A stretch of DNA of 63,851 bases, the filler included, from Deltaproteobacteria bacterium (GTDB taxonomy: Bacteria > CG2-30-53-67), in the NCBI GenBank assembly GCA_013151235.1. It is 6 parts of 6 records of this genome, joined end to end, with 100 filler letters (N's around TTAATTAATTAA, not from the genome) between each part and the next. Parts side by side here need not be neighbours in the genome. Positions count along the whole stretch, not along the records: positions 1 to 14,147 come from JAADIO010000069.1; 5 more parts are not named here. The stretch is one strand, 5' to 3'. A program made the translations under genes and the position numbers. Below, one piece after another: positions 1 through 21,459 of the stretch (position 1 is the stretch's first letter; every line of letters starts with the position of its first letter). Below the pieces are notes generated by a model. The model was not told the origin of the DNA. It did no database searches and saw only the letters and a program-made list of their open reading frames with translations.

Positions 1-77
1 GCCGGGGTTAATAATTTCCAGCATAACCCACGTTGGCAAGGGGCAGGCACTTTTTTGCCAACTGTCAGCCATTATGT
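1..77 (+). mobile_element. terminal segment of a putative IS110/IS1111-family element (end A), cut by contig start
   Basis: Identical to the reverse complement of 51771-51847. Both copies join the same position (CTCACCACGAAC) of a REP-like repeat. Ends TTGCCA-ACTGTCAGCCAT-TATGT, like an outward -35 plus sub-terminal IR. No transposase visible. Confidence 0.55.
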
Positions 78-159
78 CTCACCACGAACGGAATATCAAT
101 CACTTACACCGTTCGCCCTGAGCTTGTCGAAGGGCTTCGTGACTTTTTACGACACCATC
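78..159. repeat. right half of modular REP/MITE repeat
   Basis: Ends GACTTTTTACGACACCATC, the same terminal IR as the full copies at 10588, 35670, 44807 and 47268. Confidence 0.85.
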
Positions 160-170
160 AAGGAGGAGCG

Positions 171-201
171 AAAAAAAAGGCGGCCACGAGATGTGGCCGC
201 C
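171..201 (-). terminator. intrinsic terminator of glnA
   Basis: GGCGGCCAC/GTGGCCGCC stem followed on the minus strand by T8. Confidence 0.75.
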
Positions 202-244
202 CGATGAGCGGATTCTACATTTATGAGGACCTCTTACAAAGTCA

Positions 245-1657
245 TTAAATATCGTAGTAAAGGAAGAACTCATAGGGATGAGGACGAAGCCGGACGGCGT
301 CGATCTCGTTCTCCCGCTTGTAGGAGAGCCAGGTATCAATGACATCCTGGGTGAAGACGTCTCCTTTCAAAAGATACTGATGATCTTCTTCCAGGGCGTT
401 CAAGGCCTCGTCAAGAGAACTCGGGACGGAGGGAACGCCGGCCAGTTCTTCCGGTGAGAGGTCATAGATATTCTTGTCGAGAGGATCGCCCGGATCGATT
501 TTGTTCTCGATTCCGTCCAGTCCCGCCATGAGCATGGCCGAAAAGGCGAGGTAGGGATTGCAGGTTGCGTCGGGGAACCGCAATTCCACCCGTTTGGTCT
601 TGGGGTTGGCCGAGTACATCGGAATTCTGAGCGCCGCACTCCGGTTCCGGGAAGAGTAAGCCAGATTGACCGGCGCCTCGTAGCCCGGCACGAGCCGCTT
701 GAAGGAGTTGGTGGTCGGGTTGGTGAAGGCGACCAGGCTGGCGGCATGTTTCAGAATCCCGCCCATGAAGTGGAGACCCAGGTCGCTCATGCCGCCGTAT
801 TTGTTTCCGGCGAAGAGCGGTTTGCCTTCCTTCCAGATCGAGACATGGGTATGCATCCCCGAGCCGTTGTCCCCGAAGACCGGCTTCGGCATGAAGGTCA
901 CGGTCTTGCCGTGCTGGAGAGCGACATTTTTGATGACATATTTATACCGGAGGAGCTGGTCGGCCATCTTGGACAGCGGCGAGAATTTCATGTCGATCTC
1001 CGCCTGGCCTGCCGTGGCCACTTCGTGGTGCTGGGCTTCGATGATGATCCCCATCTCCTCAAGCTTGAGGGTCATCTCGGAGCGGATGTCCTGCTGGCTG
1101 TCGGTCGGGGGCACGGGAAAGTATCCTTCCTTGTGGCGCGGTTTGTACCCTAAGTTCGGGTTCTCTTCCCGACCGGTGTTCCAGATCCCCTCTTTGGAGT
1201 CGACGAAGTAATAACCGCACTGGGCGTTCTGGTCGAAGCGGATATCGTCGAAGATAAAGAATTCCGCCTCGGGGCCGAAAAAGGCCGTATCGCCGATCCC
1301 CGTTGATTTCAGATAGGCCTCCGCCTTGTGGGCGATGTGCCGGGGGTCACGGGAGTAACGTTCCTTCGTGATCGGATCGACGATGTCGCAGATCATGATC
1401 AGGGTCGGATGCTGGGTAAAGGGATCCATCAGGGCCGTATCGGGGTCGGGGATGACCAGCATGTCCGAGGCGTTGATGGCCTGCCAGCCTCTGATGCTCG
1501 ATCCGTCGAAACCGAGGCCTTCCTCGAAGATCGATTCTTCCAGTTCATGGATCGGAACGGAGAAATGTTGCCAGAGTCCCGGAAAATCCATGAACCGAAG
1601 ATCGAGTATCTTGGCTCCATTTTCCTCGGCGAACTTCAAAACCTCTTTGGGTGTCAT
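245..1657 (-). CDS. glnA: glutamine synthetase type I
   Basis: [33 protein letters not shown] motifs; adenylylation-site NIYDL; 470 aa. Confidence 0.98.
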
Positions 1658-1701
1658 GGTGCGTCTCCTTCTACTGGTTATAATTTTGGATAAGGAAGGG
1701 A

Positions 1702-2052
<351 letters not shown>

Positions 2053-2127
2053 TCATGTTTGAGGATCCGAGGAAAGCCGAAGTTACCATAAAAAAGTTTT
2101 CCTTGTAAAGTTCCAAATAAACAAAAA

Positions 2128-2143
2128 TGCAAGGGATGTGCCA
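2128..2143 (-). promoter_or_regulatory. sigma54 (-24/-12) promoter of glnBA
   Basis: Minus strand TGGCAC-ATCCC-TTGCA is a perfect consensus about 90 nt upstream of glnB. Confidence 0.85.
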
Positions 2144-2306
2144 ATTTTATCCTTTCTTGTATTCTCCGCGCAACCGTTTGTTTCTCAAGATCTTTTGTTT
2201 TTTTTACGGCGGAATCCCGCCGCAGAGCAGGTTTTTCTGATATGTAATTAAGCATTCCGGTATCATTGGGTCGGTGAATTGCCCCTGAAAAAGGCATTGC
2301 AATTGA

Positions 2307-5300
2307 TTATCCCGGGGGAGTCAATGCTTTTCGTACCTTTTTTGAGAGGTCCCGAAAATCGAGCTTTTTCAATTTTGCACCCTTGCGGGTTCCCCGGTCT
2401 TTGTAGTTGAGGGACCCGAAAAAACGAAAATAGGCCGTGTAGAGGCTTTTGTTCTTCCCGGTCAGGACCCGACCGGCCAGCGGAACCTTGCGTACCAGCT
2501 TTGTGGCGATGGAGAAGGGTTCGGCGGCGATATAACAGTCGATGCCATGATTGAGGAAGTCGAAACTTCCCGTGGCCCGGATATCATATTTGATCCGGAT
2601 CGGGATGGCCGCCGTCAGACGGTCAAGGGTGAGACCCGAGACATCGAACTTATGGTATCCCCGGATGGAGAAGTTGCTGGAATGAAACTTCCCGTCGGAG
2701 AGAGTGAAATCGCCCCGCATCCCGTCATGTTCCACGATCAGGAATTTTTCGTTTTTCCTGCCGAGCATGATCTCCATCCGCTGAATGATGTCCCGGGTGA
2801 TCTGAAAGAGGACGTTCCGCTCTTTGGTTGCCTTGATCTTCAGATGGGCCGTGCCGGTCATCTCCCGTGCGGTCTTCTCCAGGTTCGGGTAAATCTTTCC
2901 GGTCACGCCGATCGAGCCGGAAATCTCGCCGGTATAGAAGGCCCGGTTATGAGGAAGGAGCTGGAGATACTTCTCAGCGCTGACCCCCTGGATGTTGACC
3001 TTGCCCCTGAATTCGGGTTCCTTTCCGTTCGTGAAGTCGATCATGCCTTTGCCCTTGACCGACCCGTCGAGGCCGCGGGCGGTAAAGACCGGAATCGAAA
3101 GGTGGCCTTCTTTCAAATGAAGTTTTGCCCGGAAGTCCTCCAGTTTGAGGAGACCGGCCCGAACATGGTTGAAGTGAATCGTGGCTCGGAAATCGAGTTT
3201 CCGGAAGGAGTCTTCAGGTTTCTTTGATTCCTCCGGGCGATTTTGCCCCAGGGTTTTGATCCGCTGCAGCAGGTTCACGGAGGGGACGTGGATATGGAAT
3301 TCCGGCCGGGGGGCCTTCCGATGAGGCAGGTTCATATCAAAGGTAATGGGGATACCGTCCCATCGGCAGTGAAATCCCTTTGCGGTCACCCGTTGCCCTG
3401 AGAACAGGAGGGTCCCCGACAATCCCCGGAGGGGATCAGGGGTATGCGGAAGTCGAAGCGTGACGTCCCGCAACATGATTTGTCCATTTAATTGTGAGGA
3501 CCCCGGTCGGCCGAATCGATAGCTCCCTTCCAGCTTTCCATGAAGAGAACCGTCCGTTGTCTGCGGCGCCAGAGCCGGGATCATCCCGGCGAGCGGTTTC
3601 AGAGAGAGAGACGGGACTTTTACGGCAAAGGTGAGGCGCGGGTCAGGCGGGTCCGTTATGGTCCCGGAAAAGACCAGCGTTTCGTTCCCGAGTGTAAGGC
3701 GTGCTGTTTTGAGAACCGATTCTTTTTCCCGTCCGTGGGATCCCGAAAAATCGAGCAGAAGAGGAGTCCCCTCTTTTTTCTGCAGCCGGTTCGGGATCAT
3801 GACGGCGGGGCGGGTCAGATCGAAGCGTCCCTGAAATTGCAGATCCTCCGGAGGTCCTTCGATCTTCAGCGTCAGGTCCGGGACCCCTTCCGTGAATGTA
3901 AAACGATCCTTCAGGAAGGGAAGAAACCGGATCAATTCTTCCGCCGTGGGCCTGGAATCAACTCTGAGGTTGAGGATCGGTCCCTTCTCGAAGAGACGGT
4001 CGATCTTTCCTGTGAGGGTGACGGGGAGGGTGTTGATCTCTGCTTTCAGTTGGAACGGTGTGATCCGGCCCGAAGCAAAGGTGATCGGTCCCTCCAGTCC
4101 CGACAGGAAGACGGGGGCTGCTGGAAGATTGAAACCGGCATGGATCAGGTTCACCGTGCCGGTCAACTTCAACGGCGGGGGGGAATGGTCCGTTCGTTGC
4201 AGACGGATGTTCAGGTTGGCATATCCTTCCATTTTCGGGATTTGTGCCGGAAAGAGTTTCCCCCGATTTTCCTCCGGCAGCCTCAACAGTAATTGCGCCG
4301 CCTCTTCCAGGTTCAGGCGTCCGTTGATCCGCAGATCGGTGTCCGAGGGGTTTGTAAAGGCGAGGGTTCCCGTCAGGTTCCGGAAGAGGGATCGTCCGTA
4401 GAGACCCCGGAGATGATCGAAACGGAGGCTTCCGCCGGCCCAGGTCAGGTTCCCGTTCACCTTTTCCAGGGGGAGCAGCCCCTCCCCAGGGAAGGCTCCG
4501 AAGTCGTGAAAAGCGATTTTAAGTCGAACCCGGGTGTTCTCCGGTTCAGGTTTTGCCGTTTTTTCTTTTGTGTTGCGGGTGATCTCCAAAAGAGGAATAT
4601 CCAGAGTCCCGGTTGTCTTCCCCGGTAGAAAAGAGCGGGTGAACTCTTTCGGTAATATTTTATCCGGGGCATACTGCTTCAGCCGTGCCGGGGGGAGACC
4701 GGCTGCGTGAAGAAAAAGGCTGAAACCGGGGAAGTCGGCTGCTTCCGTCCGGTAGGTGCCGTGTCCCCAGAAGGTCAGACCGTCCACCGTCATTTCCAGA
4801 CTTCTCGCTGCAATCAGCCCGCGGTCCCTCTGGAGCATGAAGGATAGCGATGCCTTTTCGCCGGTGACCGGATGCGAAGCATAGGCGGGGAGGTGGAGCC
4901 GGAACCTTTTCAGGGAAATGTCTCCCGACAGAGTTAGCACCCCTTCCCTATTCCGGGCAAGATGACCTTTCAGGTTCACGGTTCCGGAAAGGAGATCGAG
5001 TTGCAGTTTTTCCTTCAGGTAGGGACGGATCATCGCCGGCGGAATTCCCCGGGCGGAGAACGCAACAGCAAGGACCGGCCGGTGCAGGTCGATTTTTCCG
5101 GATGTGCGGTCCACCTGCCCTTCTGCGGAAAAGGGGCGACTCTCAAAACGTCCGTGGGGGAACTCCCCCCGGATCTTGAAGAAAATGGGGGTGTTGCCGG
5201 AAAGTCCCCGCAGGGAAATATCCATATCCCGGAGCTTGACCGGAGATGGAGATCCCGGATGGAGACGATCCGGAATTTCCAGGGAGGCCTTTTCCAGGAT

Positions 5301-5771
5301 CAGGGAGTCGATCGGGAGGTGTGACGGCAGAGAGAGTCTGGGAGAGGCATTCCGACGGAAAGCGGAAAAAGGGGATCCCGGGAAATGCCGGCTGCCGTTT
5401 TTGCCGCGTTCCAGCCGGAAACGGGGATGCTTCAGGAGCAGTTTGCCGGGGACCACCTTCCCGCGGAGAAGCGGCAGAAGTTTCAGGCGGGCCTCCAGAC
5501 TGTCGGACCGGAGCCATTCCATGTTGGTCTTGCGGTCCAGGAGATGGAGGCCGATGAGCCGAATGGAAGGGGCCGGCAGAAGGCCGAATCGAACCTCCTC
5601 GATAATCGTTTTAGCCTGGAGTTCCTTCCCCAGTTCCCGCTCCACCCGGGTGCGGATCATGTTCGCGGGCAGAATGAACCGAAGGCCCCACGGCAACCCG
5701 AAGAAAAGCAGAATGAGCCCCGTGATAAGAAGGAGGAAAAATTTTTTTTCCCTGAAGATCGTCAGAGCCAT
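2307..5771 (-). CDS. AsmA-like/YhdP-type envelope protein
   Basis: About 1150 aa, N-terminal TM helix, AsmA-like LKLLPLLRGKV segment, beta-rich repeats; start at MALTIF inferred. Confidence 0.75.
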   Translation of the reverse strand: MALTIFREKKFFLLLITGLILLFFGLPWGLRFILPANMIRTRVERELGKELQAKTIIEEVRFGLLPAPSIRLIGLHLLDRKTNMEWLRSDSLEARLKLLPLLRGKVVPGKLLLKHPRFRLERGKNGSRHFPGSPFSAFRRNASPRLSLPSHLPIDSLILEKASLEIPDRLHPGSPSPVKLRDMDISLRGLSGNTPIFFKIRGEFPHGRFESRPFSAEGQVDRTSGKIDLHRPVLAVAFSARGIPPAMIRPYLKEKLQLDLLSGTVNLKGHLARNREGVLTLSGDISLKRFRLHLPAYASHPVTGEKASLSFMLQRDRGLIAARSLEMTVDGLTFWGHGTYRTEAADFPGFSLFLHAAGLPPARLKQYAPDKILPKEFTRSFLPGKTTGTLDIPLLEITRNTKEKTAKPEPENTRVRLKIAFHDFGAFPGEGLLPLEKVNGNLTWAGGSLRFDHLRGLYGRSLFRNLTGTLAFTNPSDTDLRINGRLNLEEAAQLLLRLPEENRGKLFPAQIPKMEGYANLNIRLQRTDHSPPPLKLTGTVNLIHAGFNLPAAPVFLSGLEGPITFASGRITPFQLKAEINTLPVTLTGKIDRLFEKGPILNLRVDSRPTAEELIRFLPFLKDRFTFTEGVPDLTLKIEGPPEDLQFQGRFDLTRPAVMIPNRLQKKEGTPLLLDFSGSHGREKESVLKTARLTLGNETLVFSGTITDPPDPRLTFAVKVPSLSLKPLAGMIPALAPQTTDGSLHGKLEGSYRFGRPGSSQLNGQIMLRDVTLRLPHTPDPLRGLSGTLLFSGQRVTAKGFHCRWDGIPITFDMNLPHRKAPRPEFHIHVPSVNLLQRIKTLGQNRPEESKKPEDSFRKLDFRATIHFNHVRAGLLKLEDFRAKLHLKEGHLSIPVFTARGLDGSVKGKGMIDFTNGKEPEFRGKVNIQGVSAEKYLQLLPHNRAFYTGEISGSIGVTGKIYPNLEKTAREMTGTAHLKIKATKERNVLFQITRDIIQRMEIMLGRKNEKFLIVEHDGMRGDFTLSDGKFHSSNFSIRGYHKFDVSGLTLDRLTAAIPIRIKYDIRATGSFDFLNHGIDCYIAAEPFSIATKLVRKVPLAGRVLTGKNKSLYTAYFRFFGSLNYKDRGTRKGAKLKKLDFRDLSKKVRKALTPPG

Positions 5772-6037
5772 GGTTGTACGATGAGTACCTTCCGGTTTGC
5801 GGATCCTTGCGGGAGCGTCATGGGAGGGAGGGCCTCCGCAGTTTTTCAGCTCTCCGTACTCTAAACAAACGTCGTTGTCTTTGTCAATGTTTTCCCGGGA
5901 TGAATTTGTCCTGTCTTTCAACCAGCGCCGACCTCAATGATTCCCCGGATTTCCCCTGTACGGGGAGAGAAACCGATTTTCCCTTTTTCATCGGGGGAGG
6001 CCTGTGCTATATTGATCTACGCCAACGGGAGAAAGGA

Positions 6038-7192
6038 TTGAAAACGATCTATCTCGATCACAACGCAACGACCCCCATTGCTCCGGAGGTGATCGAGGCG
6101 ATGGGGAACAGAGCGAAAAAATTCTGGGCCAATCCGTCGAGTGGTCATCTTGCCGGTCGTGCGGCCGCAGAGGAGCTGGCCCGGAACCGGGAGGCGATTG
6201 CCCGTTTCATCGGGGCCGTCCCCCCGGAGATTGTCTTTACCGCCGGCGGTTCCGAGGCGGACAATCTCGCTCTTCTCGGCGCTGCGCGGGCGAACCGGCA
6301 AAAGGGGCGGCACATTCTTGTCTCGGCCGTGGAACACCATGCCGTCCTGAAGAGCTGTGAGGTCCTGGAGGGGGAGGGATTTGAAATCGGAGTCCTCCCG
6401 GTTGACGGCAAAGGGAGGGTCGGACCGGAGACAGTCAAATCCGCCCTCCGGGACGACACGATTCTCGTTTCCGTCATGCATGCCAACAACGAGGTCGGGA
6501 CGATCCAGCCGATTGCCGAAATCGGGAAGATCCTTCGGGATCGGAGGATCCTCTTTCACAGCGATGCCGCCCAGAGTGTGGGGAAGATCCCCGTGGATGT
6601 GGACGCAATGCACGTCGATCTCCTGACCTGTGCCGCCCACAAGATCTACGGTCCCAAGGGGACGGGCTTTCTCTATGTTCGCCGGGGGATCTCCCTGACA
6701 CCGCTTCTCCATGGCGGCGGGCAGGAAGGAGGACGGCGGGCGGGGACGGAGGATCTTCCTTCCATCGCCGGGCTGGCCTGCGCTTTGCAGCTCGCCTCCG
6801 CAAGGATGGTGCAGGAGCGGGAACAACTGACCCGGATGCGGGAGTGCTTTTTTGAAATGTTGTCAGGGGCCGTGAGGGGAGTGACCCGGAACAGCCCGAA
6901 GGAGGGGAGCCTCCCCGGTACCCTGAGCGTTGCCGTTGAGGGGGTCGCCGGCGCGCAGCTTCCGGACCGTCTGAGCCGGGAAGGGATCTGTCTTTCCGCC
7001 TCGGCCGCCTGTACATCGGAAAGTGTCGTCGCCTCCCATGTCCTGACCGCCATGGGGATTTCACCCGAGAGGGCGGCGTCGACCCTCCGGATTTCCTTCG
7101 GACGCTCCAACCGGGAAGAAGAAATTCCGCGGGTGGTCAAGGCGATCAAATCGGCGGTTCATCAACTCAGATTGCGAAAGGAACAATCATGA
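6038..7192 (+). CDS. cysteine desulfurase (IscS/NifS family)
   Basis: [17 protein letters not shown] lysine in [10 protein letters not shown], catalytic Cys in SAACTS; TTG start inferred. Confidence 0.9.
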
Positions 7193-7923
7193 TCATAATC
7201 CCGGCCATCGACCTGAAAGAAGGGCGCTGCGTGCGTCTCATTCAGGGTGATATGAATCAGGAAACGGTCTATTCCGACAACCCGCCGGAGATGGCGAAGC
7301 ACTGGGAATCCCTCGGGGCTGAGCTGCTTCACGTCGTTGATCTCGACGGCGCCGTGGAAGGACGTCCGGAAAATCTCCCGGTCGTACAACAAATCGTCAG
7401 GGAACTATCGATCCCCGTTGAGGTGGGGGGCGGGATCCGGACGATGGAGACGATCGGGGCTTATCTTGACGCCGGGGCGGCACGGGTGGTCATCGGGACG
7501 AAGGCCGCCGAGGATCCGGCGTTCCTGGCAGAGGCCTGCCGGAAATATCCGGGCAGGATCGTCGCCGGGATCGATGCCAAAAAAGGGTACGTTGCGGTTC
7601 GGGGCTGGACGGACACGACAAAGCAGCGGGCCGTCGACCTGGCCCGGACGATGGAGGGGGCCGGCGTGACCGCCGTCATCTTTACCGATATCCAGCGGGA
7701 CGGCATGGAGACGGGGCCGAATATCGCATCGACGAAGGAACTGGCCGAAGCGGTCGGTATCCCCGTCATTGCCTCCGGCGGGATCTCGGGCATTCCGGAT
7801 ATTGAGAACCTCCTCAAGATAGAATCGGCCGGTGTAACAGGCGCCATTACGGGCCGGGCGATCTATACGGGGGCCCTCGATCTTGCCGAGGCGATCGCTC
7901 TTACCCGGAAAGGGAGGGAATAG
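7189..7923 (+). CDS. hisA: ProFAR isomerase
   Basis: [37 protein letters not shown]. Confidence 0.97.
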
Positions 7924-8688
7924 ATGCTGGCCAAACGGATCATTCCCTGCCTCGATGTGCGGGAGGGGCGGGTTGTCAAAGGGGTGCAGTTCGTCGGGAT
8001 ACGGGATGCCGGAGACCCCGTGGAGGTGGCCCGCCTCTATGACGCGCAGGGGGCGGACGAACTGACCTTCCTCGATATTACGGCCTCCCATGAAAAACGG
8101 GGAATCATGATCGATGTGGTCCGGCGCACCGCCGAAGAGGTCTTCATGCCTCTGACGGTCGGGGGCGGAATCTCCTCCATCGAGCATATCCGGGAACTCC
8201 TCAATGCCGGAGCGGACAAGGTTTCAATCAACACGGCCGCCGTGCGAAATCCCGATTTCATCCGGGAGGCGGCCGAACGGTTCGGCAGTCAGTGCATCGT
8301 GGTGGCCATCGATGCCAAGCGGGTCTCCGACGAGCCGGTAAAATGGGAGATCTTCACTCATGGAGGGAGAAGGCCGACCGGTATCGACGCCCTCGACTGG
8401 GCGGAGAAGATGGTCGAACTCGGTTCCGGTGAACTGCTCGTGACCAGCATGGACCGGGACGGGACGAAGGTCGGTTACGACAATGAACTGAACCGGGCGA
8501 TCTCGGAGCGGACCCGCGTTCCCATCATCGCCTCGGGCGGTGTGGGGGAACTCAGGCATCTCTATGACGGCATTATCGAAGGGAAGGCCGACGCCGTCCT
8601 GGCCGCCTCGATCTTTCATTACCGGGAGTTCACCGTGGGTCAGGTCAAGGAGTACCTGAAGTCCCTGGGAGTCACGGTCCGACTGTAA
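7924..8688 (+). CDS. hisF: imidazole glycerol phosphate synthase cyclase subunit
   Basis: [30 protein letters not shown]. Confidence 0.98.
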
Positions 8689-8714
8689 AACGAAGTTATC
8701 GCAGGAAACACATC

Positions 8715-9032
8715 ATGTCCGACGCCGAAATTCTCCGGCGGATCTACGAGGTCCTGCTGGAAAGAAAAAAGAGCCTCCCCGATGCGTCCTATACGGCGTC
8801 TCTCTTCCGGCAAGGGGAGGATGCGATTCTCCGGAAGGTGGGCGAGGAGACCCTGGAGGTTCTGCTGGCCTCCAAAGCCGGTGTGGAATCCGAGATCGTT
8901 CACGAAACGGCCGACCTCTATTTTCATCTTCTGGTTCTTCTGGCCCATCACGGGATCCCGCTTGCTCGAATCTATGCGGAGCTTACGGACCGCTTCGGGA
9001 AACGGAGGGACCGGGATCAGCGGGAGAAATGA
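8715..9032 (+). CDS. hisE: phosphoribosyl-ATP pyrophosphatase
   Basis: SYTASLF, KVGEE, ETADL.FH motifs; follows hisF. Confidence 0.93.
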   Translation: MSDAEILRRIYEVLLERKKSLPDASYTASLFRQGEDAILRKVGEETLEVLLASKAGVESEIVHETADLYFHLLVLLAHHGIPLARIYAELTDRFGKRRDRDQREK

Positions 9033-9091
9033 TGGTGTTCTTTTTCCAACGTCGTTCATGTTCATCCTCTTGTAAAAATGAAAGGAGACCT

Positions 9092-9181
9092 ATGCGTTGG
9101 TTCATGTTTTTTCTCGTGCTTGCTCTCTTCATCAGTGCCTGCTGTCTCAAACCGAACATCCCCTGCATCCCAATCCTGTAA
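9092..9181 (+). CDS. putative 29-aa small lipoprotein
   Basis: AAGGAGA RBS; MRWFMFFLVLALFISAC|CLKPNIPCIPIL has a signal peptide with lipobox ISAC; below the ORF-track cutoff. Confidence 0.55.
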   Translation: MRWFMFFLVLALFISACCLKPNIPCIPIL

Positions 9182-9595
9182 GGAAGCGAGGCCGCCCATG
9201 TTGTCGGTTTTCTCGATTCGCCCTCAGGGATTCTATTCGTAAATCCGGTGATATTTGAGTGCCGAAGGGCGGCCTCCTCCCGGTGCGTCACAGGATTTGC
9301 GAACGGGACCGGTTCCTCTCTCCAATACATTTCTGCAAAAAAAAAGACGGTACAACACTTGCAAAATAAAATCTCTGTGATATAAATGGTGATGTTTTTG
9401 TTCTGGAATATTCCGTAGTTAGAATATTCTTGATGGGTTTTTTCTTTCCAGCAGTTTGTTTTTCCCTCCGGAAGCAGGAAGCGGTCGGGGGTGATCGCAA
9501 CCGATCTTACTTTGAAACCTGACATTCACCGAGAAGATGAAATGTAGAGCTATGCGTACCCGTTGAGTTGAACTGTCGTGGCAGAGGAGGGCCGG

Positions 9596-10510
9596 ATGGA
9601 AAACACAATACTCTTTGTTGATGATGAGGCTGTTATCTTACGGGCGTTACAGATGGTCTTTACCCGGGAGGGGTACCACACCCTGACGGCCACCAGCGGA
9701 GAGGAGGCACTGAGGATTCTCGAAGACGAGGAAGTAGATGTCGTCATCTCCGATGAAAAGATGCCGGGACTCTCGGGGATTGAACTTCTTTCCCGGGTGA
9801 AAGAGAAATACCCCGACAAGATCCGGATCATTCTAACGGCTTTCGCGGAGATCAATACCGTTCTCTCCGCCATCAACCAGGTTGAAGCCCACCGCCTGAT
9901 TATCAAGCCCTACCGGAACGATGAACTGGTGACCACCGTACGGGAACTCCTGGCCCGGCTGAAGCAGAAGCGGGCAAACGAACAGTCCCTTGCCGCGGCA
10001 AACCGGGAGTCGGAATTTGCCTACCGTGCCACGCGGATCATCTGTTGCATGGATCTTTCTCTCCGGGACAAGTACCGTCGGATCCTGAAACTCATGGAGG
10101 ACTATATCCAGGCCCGGACCCTTTCCCTTATGATCCTTCACCCGGAAAAAGAGGAACTTGTCGTTCAGGCCGCGAGCAACGAACGATTGTTGGGTCTGCG
10201 GAAATCGCTGTCGGAGAACAGCATTGCCTCCTATGTGGTCCGGGAGAAGAAGCTCTTCCACAAGCCGGAAGGCGAGCGCTATCCCCATGGATTTTCCCAT
10301 CACGACAATACCGTCTCCCGCTATCAGTCGGACAACTTTCTCTCCGTCCCGGTGATGGACGACCAGCGGATCGTCGGGGTCTTCAACATCACCGACCCGG
10401 TTTCCGGAAAGATCACCTCCGGTACGGAAGAGACCGTCTCCCACCTGATGCGATGGGTCGGTGTCATGGTACACCCCTCCTTGGCGAACCTTCCCCAATC
10501 CGATGGCTGA
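9596..10510 (+). CDS. response regulator, REC plus GAF-like domain
   Basis: ILFVDDE, VVISDEKMP, KPY; C-terminal SIASYV..FLSVPV..GVFN GAF-like region; GAGGAGG RBS. Confidence 0.85.
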   Translation: MENTILFVDDEAVILRALQMVFTREGYHTLTATSGEEALRILEDEEVDVVISDEKMPGLSGIELLSRVKEKYPDKIRIILTAFAEINTVLSAINQVEAHRLIIKPYRNDELVTTVRELLARLKQKRANEQSLAAANRESEFAYRATRIICCMDLSLRDKYRRILKLMEDYIQARTLSLMILHPEKEELVVQAASNERLLGLRKSLSENSIASYVVREKKLFHKPEGERYPHGFSHHDNTVSRYQSDNFLSVPVMDDQRIVGVFNITDPVSGKITSGTEETVSHLMRWVGVMVHPSLANLPQSDG

Positions 10511-10587
10511 ACCGCGTGCAGCCGGCGGAAGAACCGATCCCCTCCGGATTGTACTTGTGTCGGCCGGGTATGACGGACGCAAACCTT

Positions 10588-10761
10588 GATGGTCTCGTAA
10601 AAAGTCGTTTTTCGGATTCCGTTCATGGTTCGACAGGCTACCGAGCATGGTGAGCCGGTCGAACCACACGAACGGAATATCAATGACCGTTCGCCCTGAG
10701 CACGCCTGTCCTGAGCTGGTCGAAGGGTCGAAGGGTCGAACGGACTTTTTACGACTTCATC
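10588..10761. mobile_element. modular REP-containing MITE, full copy
   Basis: TIR GATGGTCTCGTAAAAAGTC ... GACTTTTTACGACTTCATC, flanked by direct repeat AACCTT; lies between convergent genes. Confidence 0.85.
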
Positions 10762-10798
10762 AACCTTCAGTCTTCGGTTTTCAGTAAGTCCGGGGGAT

Positions 10799-11278
10799 TT
10801 ATAGGTCGAGGATTCGCCCTTCACGGTTTTCGGTATCATAAAGGGCTGCGGTGGAACGGCCGTAGAGCCATCCCCCGGTTTCTCCGGGATTGATGACAAG
10901 GGTCCCGCCGTGCCGCTCCAGCAGGGCTTCGTGCGTATGGCCGAAGACGACCAGGTGGTAAAGGCCGCTCTTTACGATTGCCTCCAGACCGTAAGGTTCA
11001 TGAAGGATCATGATCCGATGCTCGGGGAGGGTCAGTTCAAACGGGGCGGGATGGACACGCCCTTCGGCCGTTTTCGACAGCAGGACCCGGTCGCCGTCGT
11101 TGTTCCCGAAAACGCCGACAAATTCCGGGGCACTCTTCAGAAGTCTTCGGAGTACGAAGGGAGCGATATAGTCCCCGGCGTGCAGGAGGAGTTCGATCCC
11201 TTCCTTCCGGAGGCAGGTCAGTGCATATTCCAGATGGTCCACATGATCGTGACTGTCGGCGATGATTCCGATCTTCAT
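10799..11278 (-). CDS. YfcE/MJ0936-family metallophosphoesterase
   Basis: ADSHD, HAGD, GNND, HEP, GHTH, NPG motifs; start at MKIGII. Confidence 0.9.
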   Translation of the reverse strand: MKIGIIADSHDHVDHLEYALTCLRKEGIELLLHAGDYIAPFVLRRLLKSAPEFVGVFGNNDGDRVLLSKTAEGRVHPAPFELTLPEHRIMILHEPYGLEAIVKSGLYHLVVFGHTHEALLERHGGTLVINPGETGGWLYGRSTAALYDTENREGRILDL

Positions 11279-11289
11279 GAAAAGCAATA

Positions 11290-11742
11290 TAACATGGTGC
11301 AAGAGGGCGAGGCAAGATGCGAGAGCGATTCGAGCGGGTTTTTCCACCTCTTCCGGGGGAAGAATGGTTTCGATGGAACGGATGAAGCGCTTCTTTTTCC
11401 GGTCAACATTGTTGAGGTTGGCCACCCAGTCGGTTTCCAGCTTCTTTTGATCGGCATCGAAGATGTCGGCGATGGTGGCGATCCGGGAGCAGAGATGGAG
11501 CTGCTTCCCCCGGTACTGAAGGGGATAGCCGCCGGATCCGTCAAAATGAATATGGTGTTCAAATGGAGAATCTCCAGGTTTTCTTCGATCCTTTCCGCTG
11601 TGGTACCGATCTTCGGGAATTCGGGAGGATAGAGGGTAAAAGCGGAAAGGAGCAAGGCGATCGAATGCACCAGTCCTTCCGCTCCATCCTCTACGGTCTC
11701 GCCTGCCGACGGAATCAGATTCCTTTGTATATCGAAATCCAT
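11290..11742 (-). pseudogene. internally deleted, frameshifted HD-GYP phosphodiesterase remnant
   Basis: N-terminal frame ..LYPPEFP.. switches near 11565 to a frame reading FEHHIHFDGSGGYP..LHLCSRIATIADIFDA; the HD core is missing. Confidence 0.7.
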
Positions 11743-11750
11743 AACTTTTA

Positions 11751-13688
11751 TTATACGAGCCCTTTCAGGACCTGGGTGCAGATTTGCTGTACCCGCTTGT
11801 TTTTATTCGCCAGCCCCTCCTTAAGGACCCGGCCGGCCTTGGGCGAGCCGATTCGTTTCAGGGCGACAGCCGCCGCCTTCTGGAGGCCGGGTTCCATTTG
11901 ATTTTGCCGGTTCAAAAGGAGCCTGCGAATGATCGGCACAACCCGGTTGCCCCCGATCCGGGAAAAGGTGTGCAGAACCTCCCTCGGTACCTGAAAACGT
12001 TCATGGGCAATCAGGGGAAGGAGTGTGTCGATACAGGAGGCATCGCCGATTCTTCCCAGGATCATCACGACATTACGTACCAGGTACCACCGGTCATCCT
12101 TGAGAGCCGGCAGCAGCACCGGCAGGGCCTCCGTTCCCAGCAGGACCAGGAGGGTGGCGATTCTCTTCCGGCCGGTCAGGCTCTTCTCTTTGGCCAGCAA
12201 CTGAACCAGTAGTGAGGCCGCTTCATGGGGACGGTTGGTCGTCAAACCCTTCAGAAATTCATACTCGTCCTTCTTCAGATGACCGATGTTCCTCAGGACA
12301 ACTGCATACCAGGATTCTTCCTCCATTTGTAAAAGCACATTGGTCATCGTTGCCCGCTTTGAGGTCGCGGGAACCCTTTCCGGGGAGAATGCCTCCCGAA
12401 GAAGCGAAAAGATCGACGTCAGATTTCCGGTCAGCGCCTCCTCCGTTAAGACCTCGCGAAGTTCTTCAAGGCAACTACGGAGCTGGTCCGGTCGATCTTC
12501 CACTCGAATCAGGTCGAGCAGGACCTCCCGGTTCCGGGCGGCAATCCGCTCTTCACTCAGAGATGCCTGAATTTCCAGAAGGGTTTCCCGGTCAAAAAAG
12601 ACAGGCAGATCGGGAAGGTTGCCGGTGTGGAGGTCCTCAAGACCCTGATGATAATCCCGGGACATGAACTGCTTTTCGGAACCGGACAATAAAAAGGTAC
12701 GGATTTGCTCCCAGACCTCCGGGGAATAACTTCCCCGCCGGCCGTTTTTTTTGCGGGTTCCGGCCTTTTGCAGGAGCGTCTTCTCCCGATCGCTCCCCTT
12801 CAGCATGTCCTGAAAGACCGAAGTAATCCGGTTATCGATCTTCCCCTCTTTTACAACAGCACCGGCCAGGACCTCCAGGACCATATCATCGGAGAAGTGG
12901 GAAAAGGTCTTCCGGAGAGCATTGAGGCCTTTCTCATCGTTCCCCTTTTTCAGAATCTGCGAGACCAGGCCGCCGGAGAACTCTTTCCGCTGGGTATCGT
13001 CGAGGTTCTCAAAGACCTTCCGCTGAACTTCGGCGCAGGCCTTGGCATATCCCCCGCCTTCTGAAGGCGTGTCCGGATGGTCTTTGACCATCGACAACAT
13101 GGCCTGCAAACCCTCCGGATTTTGCAGGGAATCGGACATTTCCTGCAACGCCTCGTTATCCCCTTCCTGGACCTTCCGGACCAGGCTGCGCCAGAAGTTT
13201 TTTTCTTCCCTATCGGGATTATCTCCGGATTGCTCCAGGATCTTTTTGTAATCGATAAGGGTCGGCACGATATGGGTCGCCCCCCCCTCTTTCAAGGCCT
13301 GATCGAAGGATCCGGTGGATTTGCTGTCATCCGGGGGCCGGGCGAGGAGTCGGCCGAAGAGGAGCAGTTCCTCCCGGGTCAGGCCGGGATCGACTCTCAG
13401 CGTCAGCAGACCCACCCCATGCAGGCGCCGGGCGAGATCACTGGAGAAATGGTGCTCTTTGTCGTCCTCTCCGGTGAGAATGACCTCTTCCTCGGAGATG
13501 CCGAAGGAGAGGGGGCCCCGGGACCGGAGAAACCCTTCGAACTTGCGATAGGTGCGTTCCACGGCAGGAGCCACTGCAGGATGTTCCGGAGGATAAAGGC
13601 TCAGGATCTTCAGAAAAGCTGAAATTTCCCTGAATATCCCCTGGATCTCATCAAGATAGACTTTTTCTTCAGCAGAAGGTCTGGACAA
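11751..13688 (-). CDS. HEAT-repeat protein
   Basis: C-terminal HEAT repeats (LKDDRWYLVRNVVMILGRIG); N-terminal LYPPEHP motif. Confidence 0.8.
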   Translation of the reverse strand: MSRPSAEEKVYLDEIQGIFREISAFLKILSLYPPEHPAVAPAVERTYRKFEGFLRSRGPLSFGISEEEVILTGEDDKEHHFSSDLARRLHGVGLLTLRVDPGLTREELLLFGRLLARPPDDSKSTGSFDQALKEGGATHIVPTLIDYKKILEQSGDNPDREEKNFWRSLVRKVQEGDNEALQEMSDSLQNPEGLQAMLSMVKDHPDTPSEGGGYAKACAEVQRKVFENLDDTQRKEFSGGLVSQILKKGNDEKGLNALRKTFSHFSDDMVLEVLAGAVVKEGKIDNRITSVFQDMLKGSDREKTLLQKAGTRKKNGRRGSYSPEVWEQIRTFLLSGSEKQFMSRDYHQGLEDLHTGNLPDLPVFFDRETLLEIQASLSEERIAARNREVLLDLIRVEDRPDQLRSCLEELREVLTEEALTGNLTSIFSLLREAFSPERVPATSKRATMTNVLLQMEEESWYAVVLRNIGHLKKDEYEFLKGLTTNRPHEAASLLVQLLAKEKSLTGRKRIATLLVLLGTEALPVLLPALKDDRWYLVRNVVMILGRIGDASCIDTLLPLIAHERFQVPREVLHTFSRIGGNRVVPIIRRLLLNRQNQMEPGLQKAAAVALKRIGSPKAGRVLKEGLANKNKRVQQICTQVLKGLV

Positions 13689-13917
13689 AGTCGATTCTCC
13701 TCATATCAACTTAAATTATAACACCCCTCCTTCGAGAAAGACAAATTTTTTGCGGCACGATTATGACAATCGTGTGAAAGACAAAAATCTTGTGGGGAGG
13801 ATAAGAATATGATAGATTTAAGCAAAATCAGGGTCTTGTATCTTCCGGTTGTTATGATCGAATGAAAACGTGCGGAAAAAGTCCTTTCTTCAACGGCCGA
13901 TTGATTGGACAACATTT

Positions 13918-14147
13918 ATGACGAAGAACGGGAAGGACCAAAGAAAATCCAATCGAGTCCCCGTATCGATCCGGATTGATTATTCCACCGTTGATCAGTT
14001 TTTCTGGGATTTCGCGCGTAATATCAACGAAGGAGGGCTCTTCGTCGAGTCGAACCATCCCTTGCCGGTCGGTACAACGGTACAGCTCAAGTTTTACCTG
14101 CCGAACCGGGATGCTCCGCTGAATAGCACGGGAGAGGTTGTCTGGGT
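13918..14147 (+). CDS. PilZ-domain protein (TIGR02266-like), 3' truncated by contig end
   Basis: RxxxR (RKSNR) and NINEGGLF motifs. Confidence 0.8.
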
Positions 14148-14247: not shown

Positions 14248-14345
14248 GAACGTAGATGTAGCCTCGTAAAAGACAAGCTCCACTGGCCGAGCCTCTTCAA
14301 GATAGGCGAAGGCAGCATCCTTTTGCCGACACTGGCTTGAAGGAT

Positions 14346-14387
14346 AAAATAGGGACAGCGACCATTATATTCCTTTGCGTGGCCGCC
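14346..14387. repeat. orphan end of the RAYT-like element
   Basis: 41/42 nt identical to 51159-51200. Confidence 0.75.
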
Positions 14388-14482
14388 ATGGCCGCGATAA
14401 CGCTCAAGGTACCAGATCTTTAATCTTGCTCTCCTTTGTTGAAAAGGCCTGACACCTTACACCTCCAAACCACATGAATATC

Positions 14483-14526
14483 TTGACTTTCTCAGACGAC
14501 TCCAATAGTATCTACAATGTAGCAAC
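14483..14526 (+). promoter_or_regulatory. mazEF sigma70 promoter with palindromic operator
   Basis: TTGACT-17-TAGTAT overlapping GTATCTACAATGTAG. Confidence 0.65.
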
Positions 14527-14542
14527 AAAAAGGAGGGCCGCC

Positions 14543-14785
14543 ATGAAAACCAAGGCACAAAAATGGGGAAACAGCCTGTCCGTCCGGGTGCCCAAGGGCA
14601 TTGCAGAAAAAGCAGGTATCCGTGATGAAGATATGCTCGATATCGATATTGAGAACGGAAAGATCATATTGATACCCATCAAGAAAAAAGAATATCAACT
14701 CAAAGACCTTCTCAAGAAGATTACCGATGAGAATATCCATGGCGAAATTGACTTTGGAGAACCCTTGGGACGAGAGATCTTTTGA
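14543..14785 (+). CDS. mazE: MazE/AbrB-family antitoxin
   Basis: KWGNSLSVRVP, LL..IT.ENIHGEIDFG.P.GRE; AGGAGG RBS. Confidence 0.92.
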   Translation: MKTKAQKWGNSLSVRVPKGIAEKAGIRDEDMLDIDIENGKIILIPIKKKEYQLKDLLKKITDENIHGEIDFGEPLGREIF

Positions 14786-15129
14786 TGACGCCGACACCGT
14801 ATGTACCGGATCGTGGAGATATTGTATGGCTTCAATTCAACCCTCAATCCGGGCATGAACAGGCCGGCTACCGACCTGCTTTGGTACTTTCACCCGTGAC
14901 CTATAATGAGCGCGTGGGGTTGATGTTGTGCTGCCCCATCACAAGCCGGATCAAGGGATATCCTTTTGAAGTGGAAATCAAAGCGGGTGCAAGAATCAAG
15001 GGTGTGGTCCTTGCTGATCAAGTGAAAAGCCTGGACTGGAAAGTACGAAAAGCCAGGAAAGAAGCGAAGACCACGGCCGGAGTGATTCATAAAGTCCTGG
15101 CCAAACTCCATACGTTGTTATCCTACTGA
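14785..15129 (+). CDS. mazF: MazF/PemK endoribonuclease toxin
   Basis: YVPDRGDIVW.QFNPQSGHEQAGYRPALVLS, DQVKSLDW; TGATG coupling to mazE. Confidence 0.95.
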   Translation: MTPTPYVPDRGDIVWLQFNPQSGHEQAGYRPALVLSPVTYNERVGLMLCCPITSRIKGYPFEVEIKAGARIKGVVLADQVKSLDWKVRKARKEAKTTAGVIHKVLAKLHTLLSY

Positions 15130-15186
15130 TTTTCTTTCCCTTCAAACGCTATACAAATCTTATAAGCAGACCTGACACTTTACAGG

Positions 15187-18100
15187 TTATCCCTGCTGTT
15201 CGTCCGTTTTACCGAATCCTCCCCCTCCGGGTGTCTTCAGGAGAATCGAATCTCCGGCCTCAAGATGGAGGGCCACGCGATGGGGCAGCTCTTCAATCGT
15301 TCCGTCGGCCCGGCAGAGCCGGTTCACTCCCCGCTGCCCGCTTCCTCCCCCGGCCATGCCGTAGGGAGGGATCTTCCGCCGTTCCGAAAGGATCGAGAGG
15401 GTGGCCGGTTTTTGAAAGCCGATCTTCCGGATGACCCCGTTGCCTCCGGGGAACTTCCCGTCTCCTCCGGAGCCTTTCCGAAGCGTAAATCGACGAAGCC
15501 GGACACCGGGGTGCCGGACTTCAAGAATTTCCGGGTCGGTGATCCGGGTATTGGTCATATGGACCTGGACCCCGGAGGCGCCGGGACAGCCGTCGAGAGC
15601 ACCCGATCCTCCCGCAACGGTTTCATAGTATGGAGACTCCCCCTCCACCTCGAAAAGGAGATTGTTCATTGTCCCCTGGGAGGCGCCGGCTACCCCGAGG
15701 GCCCCGAGGAGGAGATCAACGACCCGCTGGGAGGTTTCCACATTCCCCGTGGCCACGGGTGCGGGGAAGGGAGGATTGAGGATCGATCCTTCCGGTACAC
15801 GGAGAGTGATCGGCCGGAGGCAGCCGCTGTTCAGGGGGATGTCGCCGCAGGTGAGGGTGCGGACAACGTAGAGGACGGCGGAACGGGTGACCGAGAGGGG
15901 GGTATTGAGGTTATCTTCACGGTGCCGGGCGCCGGTTCCCGCAAAGTCAATGATCGCCGTCACTGTGGAGGGGGGACGCTCACCGCCCCGGATCTCGATC
16001 CTGACCCGAAGGGGGGTCCCGTCGTCGAGACGATCTTCGAAGGAAGCAATGAAGGGATCCTTTTTCAGGAGGAATTTCAGCAGGGCCTGCTGCACGGAGA
16101 ATTCGGCATTGTCCTGTATATAATCCATATACCGGCGCACCGTCTTCCATCCATAGCGACGGATCATCCGCTGAAGTTCGCCGACCCCCTTGTGGCAGGC
16201 GGCGATCTGTGCCTGGAGATCGAAGATCCGCTCTTCCACGTTCCGGACGGGACGGGGGGCGTCGGACAGAAGACGGGTCAGTTCGGCCTCCCGGAAGTGC
16301 CCTTTTCGGACCAGCAGAAAGTCATCAATCAGGACTCCTTCGTCGCTCAGGTCCCGGGCCTTGACCGGCATGGAGCCTGGAGCGGCCCCGCCGATGTCGG
16401 CATGGTGCCCGCGGGCGGCTGTGAAAAACCGGATCTCCCCCTCCCGGGAGAAGACGGGGCAGATCACCGTCGTATCGGGAAGATGGGAGCCTCCCTTATA
16501 GGGGTTGTTCGTCAGATAGAGATCTCCCGGTTGCATCCTTCCTTTCCGGTCGGCGAGGACGGCCTTGACGGTATCTCCCATCGAACCGAGATGAACGGGG
16601 ATGTGGGGGGCGTTGGCGACCAGACCGCCCGATGCGTCAAAAACGGCACAGGAAAAATCGAGACGTTCCTTGATATTGACGGAATGTGCCGTATTCCGCA
16701 GGGTATGACCCATCTCGCCGGCCACCGACATGAAGAGATTGTTGAAGACCTCGAGAAGGACCGGGTCGGGACCTCTGCTCGTCACCGAGGCCGGGATCCT
16801 GCACCGGGACACCCTGTCGGCGAGGACAACTCCGTCGGACAGGACCGTTGCCTCAAAGCCCGTCTCCACCAGAAAGGTCGTATGGGGATCGACGACAAAG
16901 GCGGGTCCTTCGATCCGGGTCCCCGCGGGAAGGTCTTTTCGTAGATAGACGGGAGCTTTGATCGTTCCTTTCTCGTCATGGAAGGTCTGAAAGGAGACCG
17001 CCTCCGCCCGGTGTTTCCTGTCCGCCGGATGCACGGGACCGGGGGGAAAGAATTCCTCTTCTTCTTCTCCTTCCACGCGGAGATGGACCACCTCCAGGGA
17101 ACCTTCGGCAGGGACGAATCCGAAGATTTTTTCATACCGCGTACAAAATTCGGTAACCGTCTTTTCATATCCGCCGAAGGGGACGGGGATGAAATTTTCC
17201 GTGCCGCGCTGCCGCAGGTCGATCCATCGATGGATCGAATAGGCCGTTTTCCCGGCCGGTTTGCCGGAAAGGTTCCGTTCCAACACCCGGTAGCGCTCTT
17301 CCAGCGCCTCGTATCCTTTCGGACCAAAGGGTTCAAGAAGGGTGGCCTCCGCCTGCACCGTAGGTCGGGCCAGACCGATGCCGTAGGCGGACATGAGACT
17401 GCTCAGGGGATGAAAAACCACCCGGTTGATTTCGAGGAGATCGGCCACACGGCAGGCATGCTGCCCTCCCGCCCCGCCGAAGCAGACGAGGGCATCGTTC
17501 CGGACGTCCACCCCGCGGGAAACGGAGATCTCACGGATTGCCAGGGCCATCTTTTCGTCTGCAATCCGGAGAAACCCGAGGGCGGTCTCCCGGACCGAAA
17601 GATTTCGATCCAGGGTGGTATTGATTCGCTCCGTCATCTCTTCAAAGGATCGAAGAGAGGCCGTGACATCCAGTCCCGACTTCCGGTCGGCGCCGAAGGT
17701 CTTCGGAAAGGCGTCCGCTATGATCCTCCCCGTTACAAGGTTGGCGTCCGTTACGGTGAGGGGACCGCCGAAACCGTAACAGGCGGGTCCGGGATCGGCG
17801 CCTGCCGATTCCGGGCCGACCCGTATCTTTTGTCCATCAAACCAGAGGACGGACCCCCCGCCGGAGGCGACAGACACAATGTTGAGCATCTCCGTGGAAA
17901 GTTCAACGCCGCCGACCTCCCGTTCAAAGCACTTTTCGAACTCCCCGTCAAAACGGCAGATATCGGTGGAGGTTCCTCCCATATCGAAACCGATGACACC
18001 GGCCGCACCCGCCTGCCGTGCGGCCTCGGCCACGGCGATGACCCCGCCTGCCGGTCCCGAAAAAAGGGCGTTCCTCCCATGGAAGTGATCCGGGCTCACC

Positions 18101-18817
18101 AGCCCCCCTGCGCTGACCATGAATTCGATCGGGATCGTTCCCGTCGCCTTCCGGATCTCCTGCAGGTGCCGATCGATCACCGGACTGAGATAGGCATCGA
18201 CGACCGTACTCCGTCCCCGGCCGACGATCTTGATCCTGTTCATGGTCTCATGGGAGAGATAGATATTCGAAAATCCGGACTTTGCCGATCTCCTCTTCGT
18301 GGACCGGGTTTTTCCAGGCATGGAGGCAGACCACGGCCACGGCATCGATCCGCTCTTGCTCCAGGCGCTCCAGGATCGTGCCGAGACACTCCCGCCGGAG
18401 GGGCTCCTCCACCTCCCCCGCGGCATTGATTCGCTCACGAACCTCCAGAACAAGATCGTAAAGGACCGACGGTTTCCGTATGCAGAGTTCGAAGATCGAA
18501 GGGCGGCTCTGGTTCCCGATCTCCAGCAGGTCGGCGAATCCCGCCGTGATCAAAAGCGCCACCCGTCCCCCCTTGTGTTCTAAAAGGGCGTTCGTGGCCA
18601 CGGTTGTCCCGAAACGGATCCCTTCAATCCGGTCGGCCGGGAGAACGACTTCCGGTGGAAGACCGAGAAGACGGCGGATTCCCTCAATCGATGCCGAGGG
18701 ATAGTCCGGTGACGAAGAGAGGAGCTTTGTTACATGGAGTTTTCCCGAAGGATCGCGCCCGATCACATCTGTAAAGGTCCCCCCCTGATCGACGGCGAAT
18801 CTCCATTTCGAAGTCAT
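15187..18817 (-). pseudogene. fused hydantoinase A/B (5-oxoprolinase-like) with a frameshift near 18280
   Basis: N part DQGGTFTD, GTTVATNALL (start MTSKW at 18817) continues in another frame with [45 protein letters not shown]. Confidence 0.85.
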
Positions 18818-19389
18818 TTTATCTCTCCGTTCTTTCTGTGGGCATGTTCCGCGTTTTCCGGTCCGGTGATCGGCAGCCTGCATTCTAACCATTTCCCGGC
18901 GCGACGACAAGCCGGAAACATTTTCTCCGCTCCGTGCCGCATTTTCGGGAAGAAAACAGTCACAGATGGAAGATACGACAGTGCAATTTGCACGATATGG
19001 GTAAATTATTACATAGACCATTGGTCCATTCCCGTCGAGATCCGGCATGCCGGGCGCTTCATGCAACTATTGTCTTTTAAATCAATAAGATATGAGATGT
19101 TTTCCGGTGTTGGAAGGCCGTGATCAAGAGGGCTTCCTGATTCCGTGTCTGCACGATTGTATCATGCAGGCCTCCTGACGGATGCGCGGGACATGCCGGC
19201 GATTTTGTTTATTGATTTTGTCAAGAAAACGGGAACGAAGCGTCCATTTCTTTTCCTATCGATTTAATCCACAATTAAATTCTTCGGGATGTTCTCCCGA
19301 ATATCCGGGCTTCAGTTTGGTCCGGCTGTACTTTATCAATATGATAAACAAAAAAATATTTATAAAAATCAACAAGATCGATGATCCCT

Positions 19390-19405
19390 TGGCATGTTGT
19401 TTGCT
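19390..19405 (+). promoter_or_regulatory. sigma54 promoter of the sulfur cluster
   Basis: TGGCAT-GTTGT-TTGCT (GG-N10-GC), 63 nt before the DsrE-like gene, preceded by an AT-rich tract. Confidence 0.7.
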
Positions 19406-19468
19406 GTTTCAATGGTCCGTTGATGTGAATGGGGTCAGTGTAAACCGGTATTGTCGCGAGGAGATTTT

Positions 19469-19873
19469 ATGAGTGAACAAGACAGAAAGATTGCAATCAT
19501 CCTCTCATCGGAGGACTACGCCAAGATACAGCTTGCCGGAATGATCGCTTCGGTGGCTGCCGTATCGAGTATCGAGGTACTCATCTTCGTTTCAATGGGG
19601 GCCGTCCGAAAATTCAGGAAGGGGATCACGGACGATGAACGATTCACGGGATCCGATTTTTCAAAGGTCCTGAGGGAGAAAAAGGTTCCGCCCTATCTTG
19701 ATCTTTTCAAGCAGGCCAGGGAGTTCGGCGATGCGAAGATCTATGCCTGCCCCATGGCCATGGAGGTCTTGGAGATGACGAAAGAGGATCTGGAAGAGGA
19801 TATTTTCGACGAGATCGCCGGGATGACGAAGTTTCTCGTCGATGCCGATGGATACAATATTATTAATCTGTAG
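19469..19873 (+). CDS. DsrE/DsrF-like (DsrE2-type) sulfur carrier
   Basis: KIYACPMAM motif, 134 aa, adjacent to tusA. Confidence 0.8.
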   Translation: MSEQDRKIAIILSSEDYAKIQLAGMIASVAAVSSIEVLIFVSMGAVRKFRKGITDDERFTGSDFSKVLREKKVPPYLDLFKQAREFGDAKIYACPMAMEVLEMTKEDLEEDIFDEIAGMTKFLVDADGYNIINL

Positions 19874-19899
19874 TACGTTGCCAAACAGGAGGTAAAATC

Positions 19900-21446: not shown

Positions 21447-21459
21447 AGGGAGGAATGAA

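Follow-up and report, generated by a model that had tools for sequence, protein, structure and literature searches.

A multicopy insertion sequence (IS) of the IS1111 family (IS110 superfamily; DEDD recombinase with a guide RNA of the seekRNA or bridge type) very probably occupies at least two copies of the target GTG|AGCCTG in a Deltaproteobacteria genome (GenBank assembly GCA_013151235.1). The target is located in the loop of a hairpin inside a MITE. The stretch of DNA that was analysed has a length of 63,851 nucleotides and is referred to as the window. It is composed of six contigs (1–14147, 14248–28458, 28559–41914, 42015–51847, 51948–61586 and 61687–63851) with artificial spacers (N/TTAATTAATTAA) between them. 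Three junctions of one target are present, two with the left end of the element (LE, 1–79 and 51769–51847) and one with its right end (RE, 42015–42096). The coordinates are listed in Table 1.

The first-pass annotation had proposed a multicopy IS110/IS1111 element that is site-specific for a REP-like repeat and collapsed in the assembly. Homology of the LE to IS110-family elements, a sub-terminal inverted repeat (IR) and the guide scaffold found in relatives support this proposal.

Table 1. Positions of the element ends, their flanks and the empty target sites in the window
Feature	Position	Strand	Basis
LE of IS copy 1	1–79	−	Identity with copy 2; aligned with seven homologous LEs leading into IS110-family ORFs
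Left flank (in IS orientation): remaining part of the split MITE copy, ending beside the glnA stop	80–161		78–123 identical to 47318–47363 of the intact copy (46/46)
RE, last 80 nt of an IS1111-type element	42015–42094	+	Last 32–37 nt 97% identical to REs of complete relatives
Right flank of the RE: AGCCTGTCGAA (right half of the target), then MITE terminal arm	42095–42134		Sequence comparison
Second perfect empty target site, in a compound MITE between ruvB and ruvA	45077–45094	+	18-mer search
Empty target site CGTGGTG|AGCCTGTCGAA; hairpin loop of 11 nt (14-bp stem) in an intact MITE	47309–47326	−	18-mer search; fold
Left flank of IS copy 2 (split MITE copy)	51622–51768		Only the last 14 nt (CCGTTCGTGGTG and AG) common with the flank of copy 1
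LE of IS copy 2, same sequence as copy 1	51769–51847	+	Sequence identity

Shared contig ends and the target site

Positions 1–77 and 51771–51847 are exact reverse complements (77/77, E 3e-40), as had been noted in the first-pass annotation. They open contig 1 and close contig 4, respectively, and are thus ends of two different contigs rather than both ends of one. The identity continues for 14 bases into the repeat and stops there, and the flanks diverge beyond this point, again as annotated. The shared sequence of 91 nt (77 nt of foreign DNA and 14 nt of repeat) is beyond chance.

The cut had been placed at 77|78, which is one of two equivalent positions of the boundary; it is uncertain by 2 nt because AG is found in the target and also at the tip of the element. 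A 2-bp target duplication was considered and rejected. In some relatives the element is followed on the right by AA or GG although AG is retained at the LE; the dinucleotide is thus part of the IS tip and, independently, part of the target. The two LE junctions share the exact insertion base and the orientation. One target, one orientation and the lack of a true target duplication correspond to the IS1111 family.

An 18-mer search with CGTGGTGAGCCTGTCGAA returned two perfect sites and seven sites with one to three mismatches, i.e. nine in the window versus 0.07 expected by chance. One of the perfect sites coincides with the uninterrupted site previously placed at approximately 47311–47330. The hairpin that carries the target has a predicted folding energy of −12.6 kcal/mol (z −4.28). 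Several copies of the MITE are present in the window, and parts of it were detected in 54 of the 401 genomes of the phylum sample, with the hairpin module being 95–100% identical in several of these. Compound copies of the MITE, in which two or three hairpin modules are arranged in tandem (variants GGCAAGCTCACC... of the target hairpin), occupy 44805–45128 and 51622–51768. Contig C71 of genome G341 contains at least five copies of the hairpin module, approximately 150 nt apart. The MITE looks modular and not like one single unit. IS1111-type elements land in REP or MITE hairpins as harmless sites, and the present element is one more case.

The contig 1 junction is adjoined by glnA, in accordance with the first-pass annotation, and glnB lies next to this gene. 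The neighbor named for the other junction, a RAYT remnant, could not be confirmed. The corresponding ORF (51366–51545, minus strand, 59 aa, MPRIARAVAQGYPHHVTQRGNYRQ...) has neither a Pfam nor an NCBIfam match. We take it to resemble the HUH motif of Y1 transposases.

REP-like hairpins such as this target are also used by RAYT and IS200/IS605 elements. Together with the flagged RAYT remnant, this raises the question of whether the shared sequence is the end of another type of element (IS200/IS605-RAYT, group II intron or DDE IS) or an assembly artefact. Both are very improbable. The 77 nt align over their full length with LEs that precede IS110-family genes, the RAYT remnant is not backed by an HMM, and Rfam searches with the elements of three relatives (E up to 1) matched no family, group II introns included. 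Conservation of both the IS end and the target base would not arise from an artefact.

Left end, right end and the missing body

The IS1111 definition in the part of Siddiquee et al. (2024; PMC11187229) used here comprises a 7-bp left extension, sub-terminal IRs of 11–13 bp, a 3-bp right extension, a long 3' non-coding region (NCR) and a guide whose top-strand complement is located 5' of the bottom-strand match. Judged by its sequence, the element has every one of these features that the window can show, and the 77 nt are assigned to the left end, next to the transposase gene, of an element of the IS1111 family (IS110 superfamily).

In copy 1, read on the minus strand, the 7-bp extension AGACATA (79–73) is followed by the sub-terminal IR ATGGCTGACAGTT (72–60), a CCTGCCCC box and a TTGCCAACGTGGGTTATGCTGG box. 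In copy 2 the extension occupies 51769–51775, the IR 51776–51788 and a −10-like CATAAT 51772–51777. The short IR-like sequence ACTGTCAGCCAT pointed out in the first-pass annotation is the sub-terminal IR that defines the IS1111 group. The visible end is the short one next to the transposase gene and not the non-coding one with the guide. In alignment A1 (eight LEs, 23 invariant columns), the homologous LEs are transposase-proximal and continue to a conserved RBS and ATG approximately 105 nt from the tip. According to the alignment, the contig ends approximately 25–30 nt short of the expected RBS and ATG. TTGCCA (55–60), previously listed as a feature of the end, is not conserved in the other LEs. 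For the same reason it was rejected as a promoter −35 element.

An assignment to the IS110 group sensu stricto (long NCR upstream of the transposase gene, no sub-terminal IRs) does not agree with the sequence, since sub-terminal repeats are present and the LE is short, with homologous LEs reaching the start codon after approximately 105 nt.

The RE opens contig 4 and was overlooked in the first-pass annotation. Its 80 nt include a GGGGCAGG box, a −35-like TTGACA (42074–42079), the sub-terminal IR AACTGTCAACCAT (42079–42091) and the 3-bp extension ATC (42092–42094). The RE abuts AGCCTGTCGAA, whereas the left half of the target, CCGTTCGTGGTG, abuts both LEs; the RE junction thus carries the half-site complementary to that of the LE junctions. 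Comparison with the empty site fixes the extensions as AGACATA on the left (7 bp) and ATC on the right (3 bp), the lengths found in the IS1111 family. If LE and RE belong to one element, their IRs ATGGCTGACAGTT and AACTGTCAACCAT match at 12 of 13 positions, in accordance with the perfect or near-perfect IRs of this family. The inverted CCTGCCCC/GGGGCAGG box is present at both ends (27–34 and 51814–51821; 42053–42060), approximately 25–30 nt inside the IR. The CCTGCCCC box is conserved in most LEs and the GGGGCAGG box in the REs of genomes G192 and G607. It may represent a second protein- or RNA-binding site.

The 80 nt of the RE and 11 nt of shared flank add up to 91 nt, which equals the overlap at the LE junctions. 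The first 91-mer of contig 4 stops exactly where the arm types of the MITE split (CCTGTCGAA followed by CC or GG). A start 91 nt before this divergence points to a branch in an assembly graph with k=91, from which we infer at least one further RE junction at the canonical site. All three terminal overlaps have a length of 91 nt; the body is missing from the window because the assembler broke at the repeat. The IS thus accounts for three contig breaks in the MAG. It also suggests a scaffold in which reversed contig 1 is joined via the IS to contig 4. With this arrangement, the two MITE halves would give one MITE with terminal arms that match at 35 of 37 positions (manual comparison).

Probably, one IS supplies both the LE and the RE. 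A distinctly less probable arrangement involves two related IS1111-type elements guided to the same MITE loop, one represented by the LE (1–79, 51769–51847) and the other by the RE (42015–42094). It would explain why the sub-terminal IRs differ at one of 13 positions (LE ATGGCTGACAG vs reverse-complemented RE ATGGTTGACAG) whereas those of five complete relatives are perfect. The element of genome G100, whose LE IR is the same as in the window, has a perfectly matching RE, CTGTCAGCCAT. Furthermore, the last 37 nt of the RE are 97% identical to elements of G001 and G266 with a long LE, whereas the LE of the window is of the short type. On the other hand, the LE and RE junctions carry complementary half-sites, and each type is seemingly present in at least two copies. 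The element of G607, found in two copies, also has an IR with one mismatch, and the passage on IS1111 IRs in the published definition (PMC11187229) calls them 'perfect or near-perfect'. A single element is also the simpler explanation.

A contig break 91 nt into the element is compatible with a full-length IS and with a short non-autonomous derivative that consists of LE and RE, lacks the transposase gene and is mobilized in trans. Just 79 and 80 nt of the ends are visible, and relatives include deletion derivatives of 1126–1448 nt without an intact ORF of 300 aa or more. Nevertheless, a derivative is improbable. The LE is collinear with those of full-length relatives up to the contig edge, approximately 25–30 nt before their RBS, and on their inner sides the visible parts of LE and RE neither overlap nor abut.

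Neither a transposase gene nor a guide-bearing NCR is present in the window, and a complete copy of the IS is likewise missing from it; a tblastn search of the window with the transposase of a relative (L023) gave a best E-value of 0.17. The visible 80 nt of the RE lie 3' of the RNA core that is conserved in relatives. No matches were obtained among JGI metagenome contigs with the LE pattern and the RE-junction pattern, nor among viral contigs with the conserved NCR core. The only sequencing run in which part of the query turned up (5% of the sampled words) yielded, for the most part, remote homologues of glnA and of the repeat; 100 of its 153 records were less than 90% alike, and none bridges the junction into the body. 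A close relative of the host was not found among the genomes tried, the best identities being 71% for GlnA and 67% for RuvB.

By analogy with relatives and published members, the single element favored here would excise as a circle in which the RE abuts the LE. TTGACA is located 15 nt from the RE tip and CATAAT, which is conserved, at nt 4–9 of the LE. They are likely the −35 and −10 elements, respectively, of a circle-junction promoter with an 18-nt spacer. This promoter would drive the transposase gene and a 3' non-coding region of approximately 300 nt. The non-coding RNA is expected to fold into two stem-closed internal loops. In the first loop, one segment of 6 nt would be complementary to the six bases that follow the insertion point on the right, and another of 5 nt would repeat the three bases that precede this point on the left, plus AG. 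The second loop would contain the RE tip plus AG.

Relatives and their guide rule

Homologues of the LE are present in nine of the 401 genomes of the phylum sample and in 43 of the 239 genomes of one order (that of G257). Many of the matches are at contig ends, as in the window, which is the usual effect of a multicopy IS on short-read assemblies. All five scanned ORFs beside homologous LEs contain DEDD_Tnp_IS110 (PF01548) and Transposase_20 (PF02371). The ORF of one relative matches NF033542 ('IS110 family RNA-guided transposase', 7e-80). Over approximately 100 C-terminal residues, the same protein weakly matches IS621 and ISCro4 (PDB entries 8WT6 and 9T56, E 2.5e-6 and 3.4e-7). These bridge recombinases are RNA-guided DEDD enzymes with a two-loop RNA that reads target and donor. 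Eight matches came from a pattern scan of genome contigs; two of them are true relatives (L006 and L008) and the others look like chance. L006 is a collapsed contig of 1710 nt whose ORF has both DEDD_Tnp_IS110 and Transposase_20.

Seven complete copies, representing five distinct elements, have one layout: AGACATA and an IR of 11–13 bp at the left, the matching IR and ATC at the right. The IRs of these elements are perfect and co-vary between elements. The LE has a length of approximately 105 nt, the transposases have 368–371 aa and the 3' NCR extends over 290–350 nt with a conserved two-loop core. The RNA scaffold is also found on alpha- and betaproteobacterial plasmids.

Some copies deserve separate mention. 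In the MAG G192, a related IS is represented by approximately 18 RE junctions, located at contig ends; those inspected, six in number, share a loose flank consensus, A(G/A)CAG. Apparently, this element is heavily expanded and its target relaxed. L050 and L049 (G266:C1) are two copies of a relative with a long LE, and their flanks are near-identical for more than 100 nt on both sides. Either the target itself is a long repeat or the IS was duplicated with its surroundings. In L125 (G426:C87), an IS1111-type transposase gene is broken after approximately 50 codons, about 330 nt into the element. The insert encodes MPRVARG...YHVINRGNGRQ, presumably an IS200/RAYT-like N-terminus.

RNAalifold predicts two stem-closed internal loops for the core shared by the 3' NCRs of the relatives. 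Compensatory changes occur in five of 23 predicted pairs, and in the consensus fold the two guide segments face each other across a single internal loop. In this loop 1, GGAGAACCCTCG plus 2 nt is followed by a hexamer that is the reverse complement of the six bases immediately to the right of the element. The 3 nt preceding AG-AC(C)GAGGCAGC are identical to the last three bases left of the element. The top-strand complement thus comes first, as it does for IS1111 seekRNAs in the part of PMC11187229 concerned with them.

The guide positions were set from the first elements and then applied to later ones. For the 19 loci of the guide table, which include copies of the same IS and represent fewer than 19 independent events, the variable 4 nt of the right flank match at 62 of 76 positions (permuted mean 25.4) with 12 perfect loci. 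The 3 nt of the left flank match at 45 of 57 positions (permuted mean 32.6) with nine perfect loci among the same 19. Neither value was reached in any of 20,000 permutations. Several copies have one mismatch to the rule. Three copies on alphaproteobacterial plasmids fit poorly (one of four variable positions each); two of them are without an intact gene and one abuts an IS5. A Cupriavidus copy fits only with a linker that is 2 nt longer. In genome G274, six RE junctions uniformly read AGGGTG followed by a REP-like palindrome, which agrees with the guide of the near-identical element of G053.

The 3' side of loop 2 corresponds to the RE tip plus AG and reads ATATCAG in most elements. Two plasmid elements with the RE tips CATC and CATG have CATCAG and CATGAG, respectively, in loop 2. 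The 5' side of this loop was searched for a further donor guide that would be complementary to the tip of the LE, with partial and inconsistent matches only.

Applied to the element of the window, the rule predicts the guide segments CAGGCT and GTGAG. The scaffold with the predicted guide CAGGCT (GAGARYCCTCGNNCAGGCTA) was found in none of the 401 genomes. A wider reading can be put forward only tentatively: a clade abundant in one Desulfobacterota-type order would use a short readable code (3 nt left and 6 nt right, overlap AG, one internal loop), and the present element, or two reprogrammed sisters, would have specialized on the MITE hairpin loop as a safe site. If this is true, the targets of uncharacterized copies could be predicted from their sequence alone, and the IS within the MITE would represent a nested relation of one parasite on another.

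Comparison with known elements and further features of the window

One of the closest known elements is ISPa11 of Pseudomonas aeruginosa (IS1111 family), as portrayed in the relevant part of PMC11187229. ISPa11 also has a folded REP-type target that is entered at one position and in one orientation, and sub-terminal IRs with extensions of 7 and 3 bp. Its 3' NCR gives rise to a transposase-bound guide RNA with the top-strand complement 5' of the bottom-strand match, the order that was read here in the relatives. Unlike ISPa11, the element resides in a Desulfobacterota-type MAG, and the sequence and the hairpin of the target differ; the comparison is based on the published description of ISPa11. 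The transposases of the relatives (368–371 aa) are longer than the 330–350 aa quoted for the family in the same source.

ISEc11, another IS1111-family member, shares the short linear target and, in the account drawn on, a promoter with −35 and −10 elements at the circle junction of RE and LE, which in the present case is predicted from sequence. Its NCR is required in cis or trans, and of its apparent duplication, one copy is attributed to the left extension of 7 bp. According to the same account, the ISEc11 target is not located in a hairpin and its function was shown by experiment, whereas the present element is described from sequence alone. ISPpu9 of Pseudomonas putida KT2440 resembles it as a multicopy IS110-family element in REP sequences. 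The pertinent part of PMC12288879 describes a small RNA gene downstream of the ISPpu9 transposase gene; its host and target are unrelated to those of the window. IS621, from the IS110 group, differs in having its guide upstream of the gene and no sub-terminal IRs.

As the portions of these reports on ISPa11 and ISPpu9 illustrate, IS110/IS1111 elements in REPs are already well known, and the current picture of how such elements work is unchanged. What is gained is a corrected anatomy (LE and the overlooked RE), the exact target, a guide rule and a prediction for the missing body. A populous uncharacterized clade with a clear guide-to-flank rule is added to the RNA-guided IS1111/IS110 recombinases, which are of interest as programmable tools for DNA insertion.

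Three further features of the window were recorded. Ten N within contig 3 (39364–39373) represent a scaffolding gap that is distinct from the artificial spacers. Near the start of contig 5, positions 52060–52140 consist of low-complexity repeats of the CCCCTTTGCC / GCCTTTGCCC type. Finally, contig 6 (61687–63851) has a GC content of 42.7% compared to 52–56% in the other five contigs and may be mis-binned or horizontally acquired.
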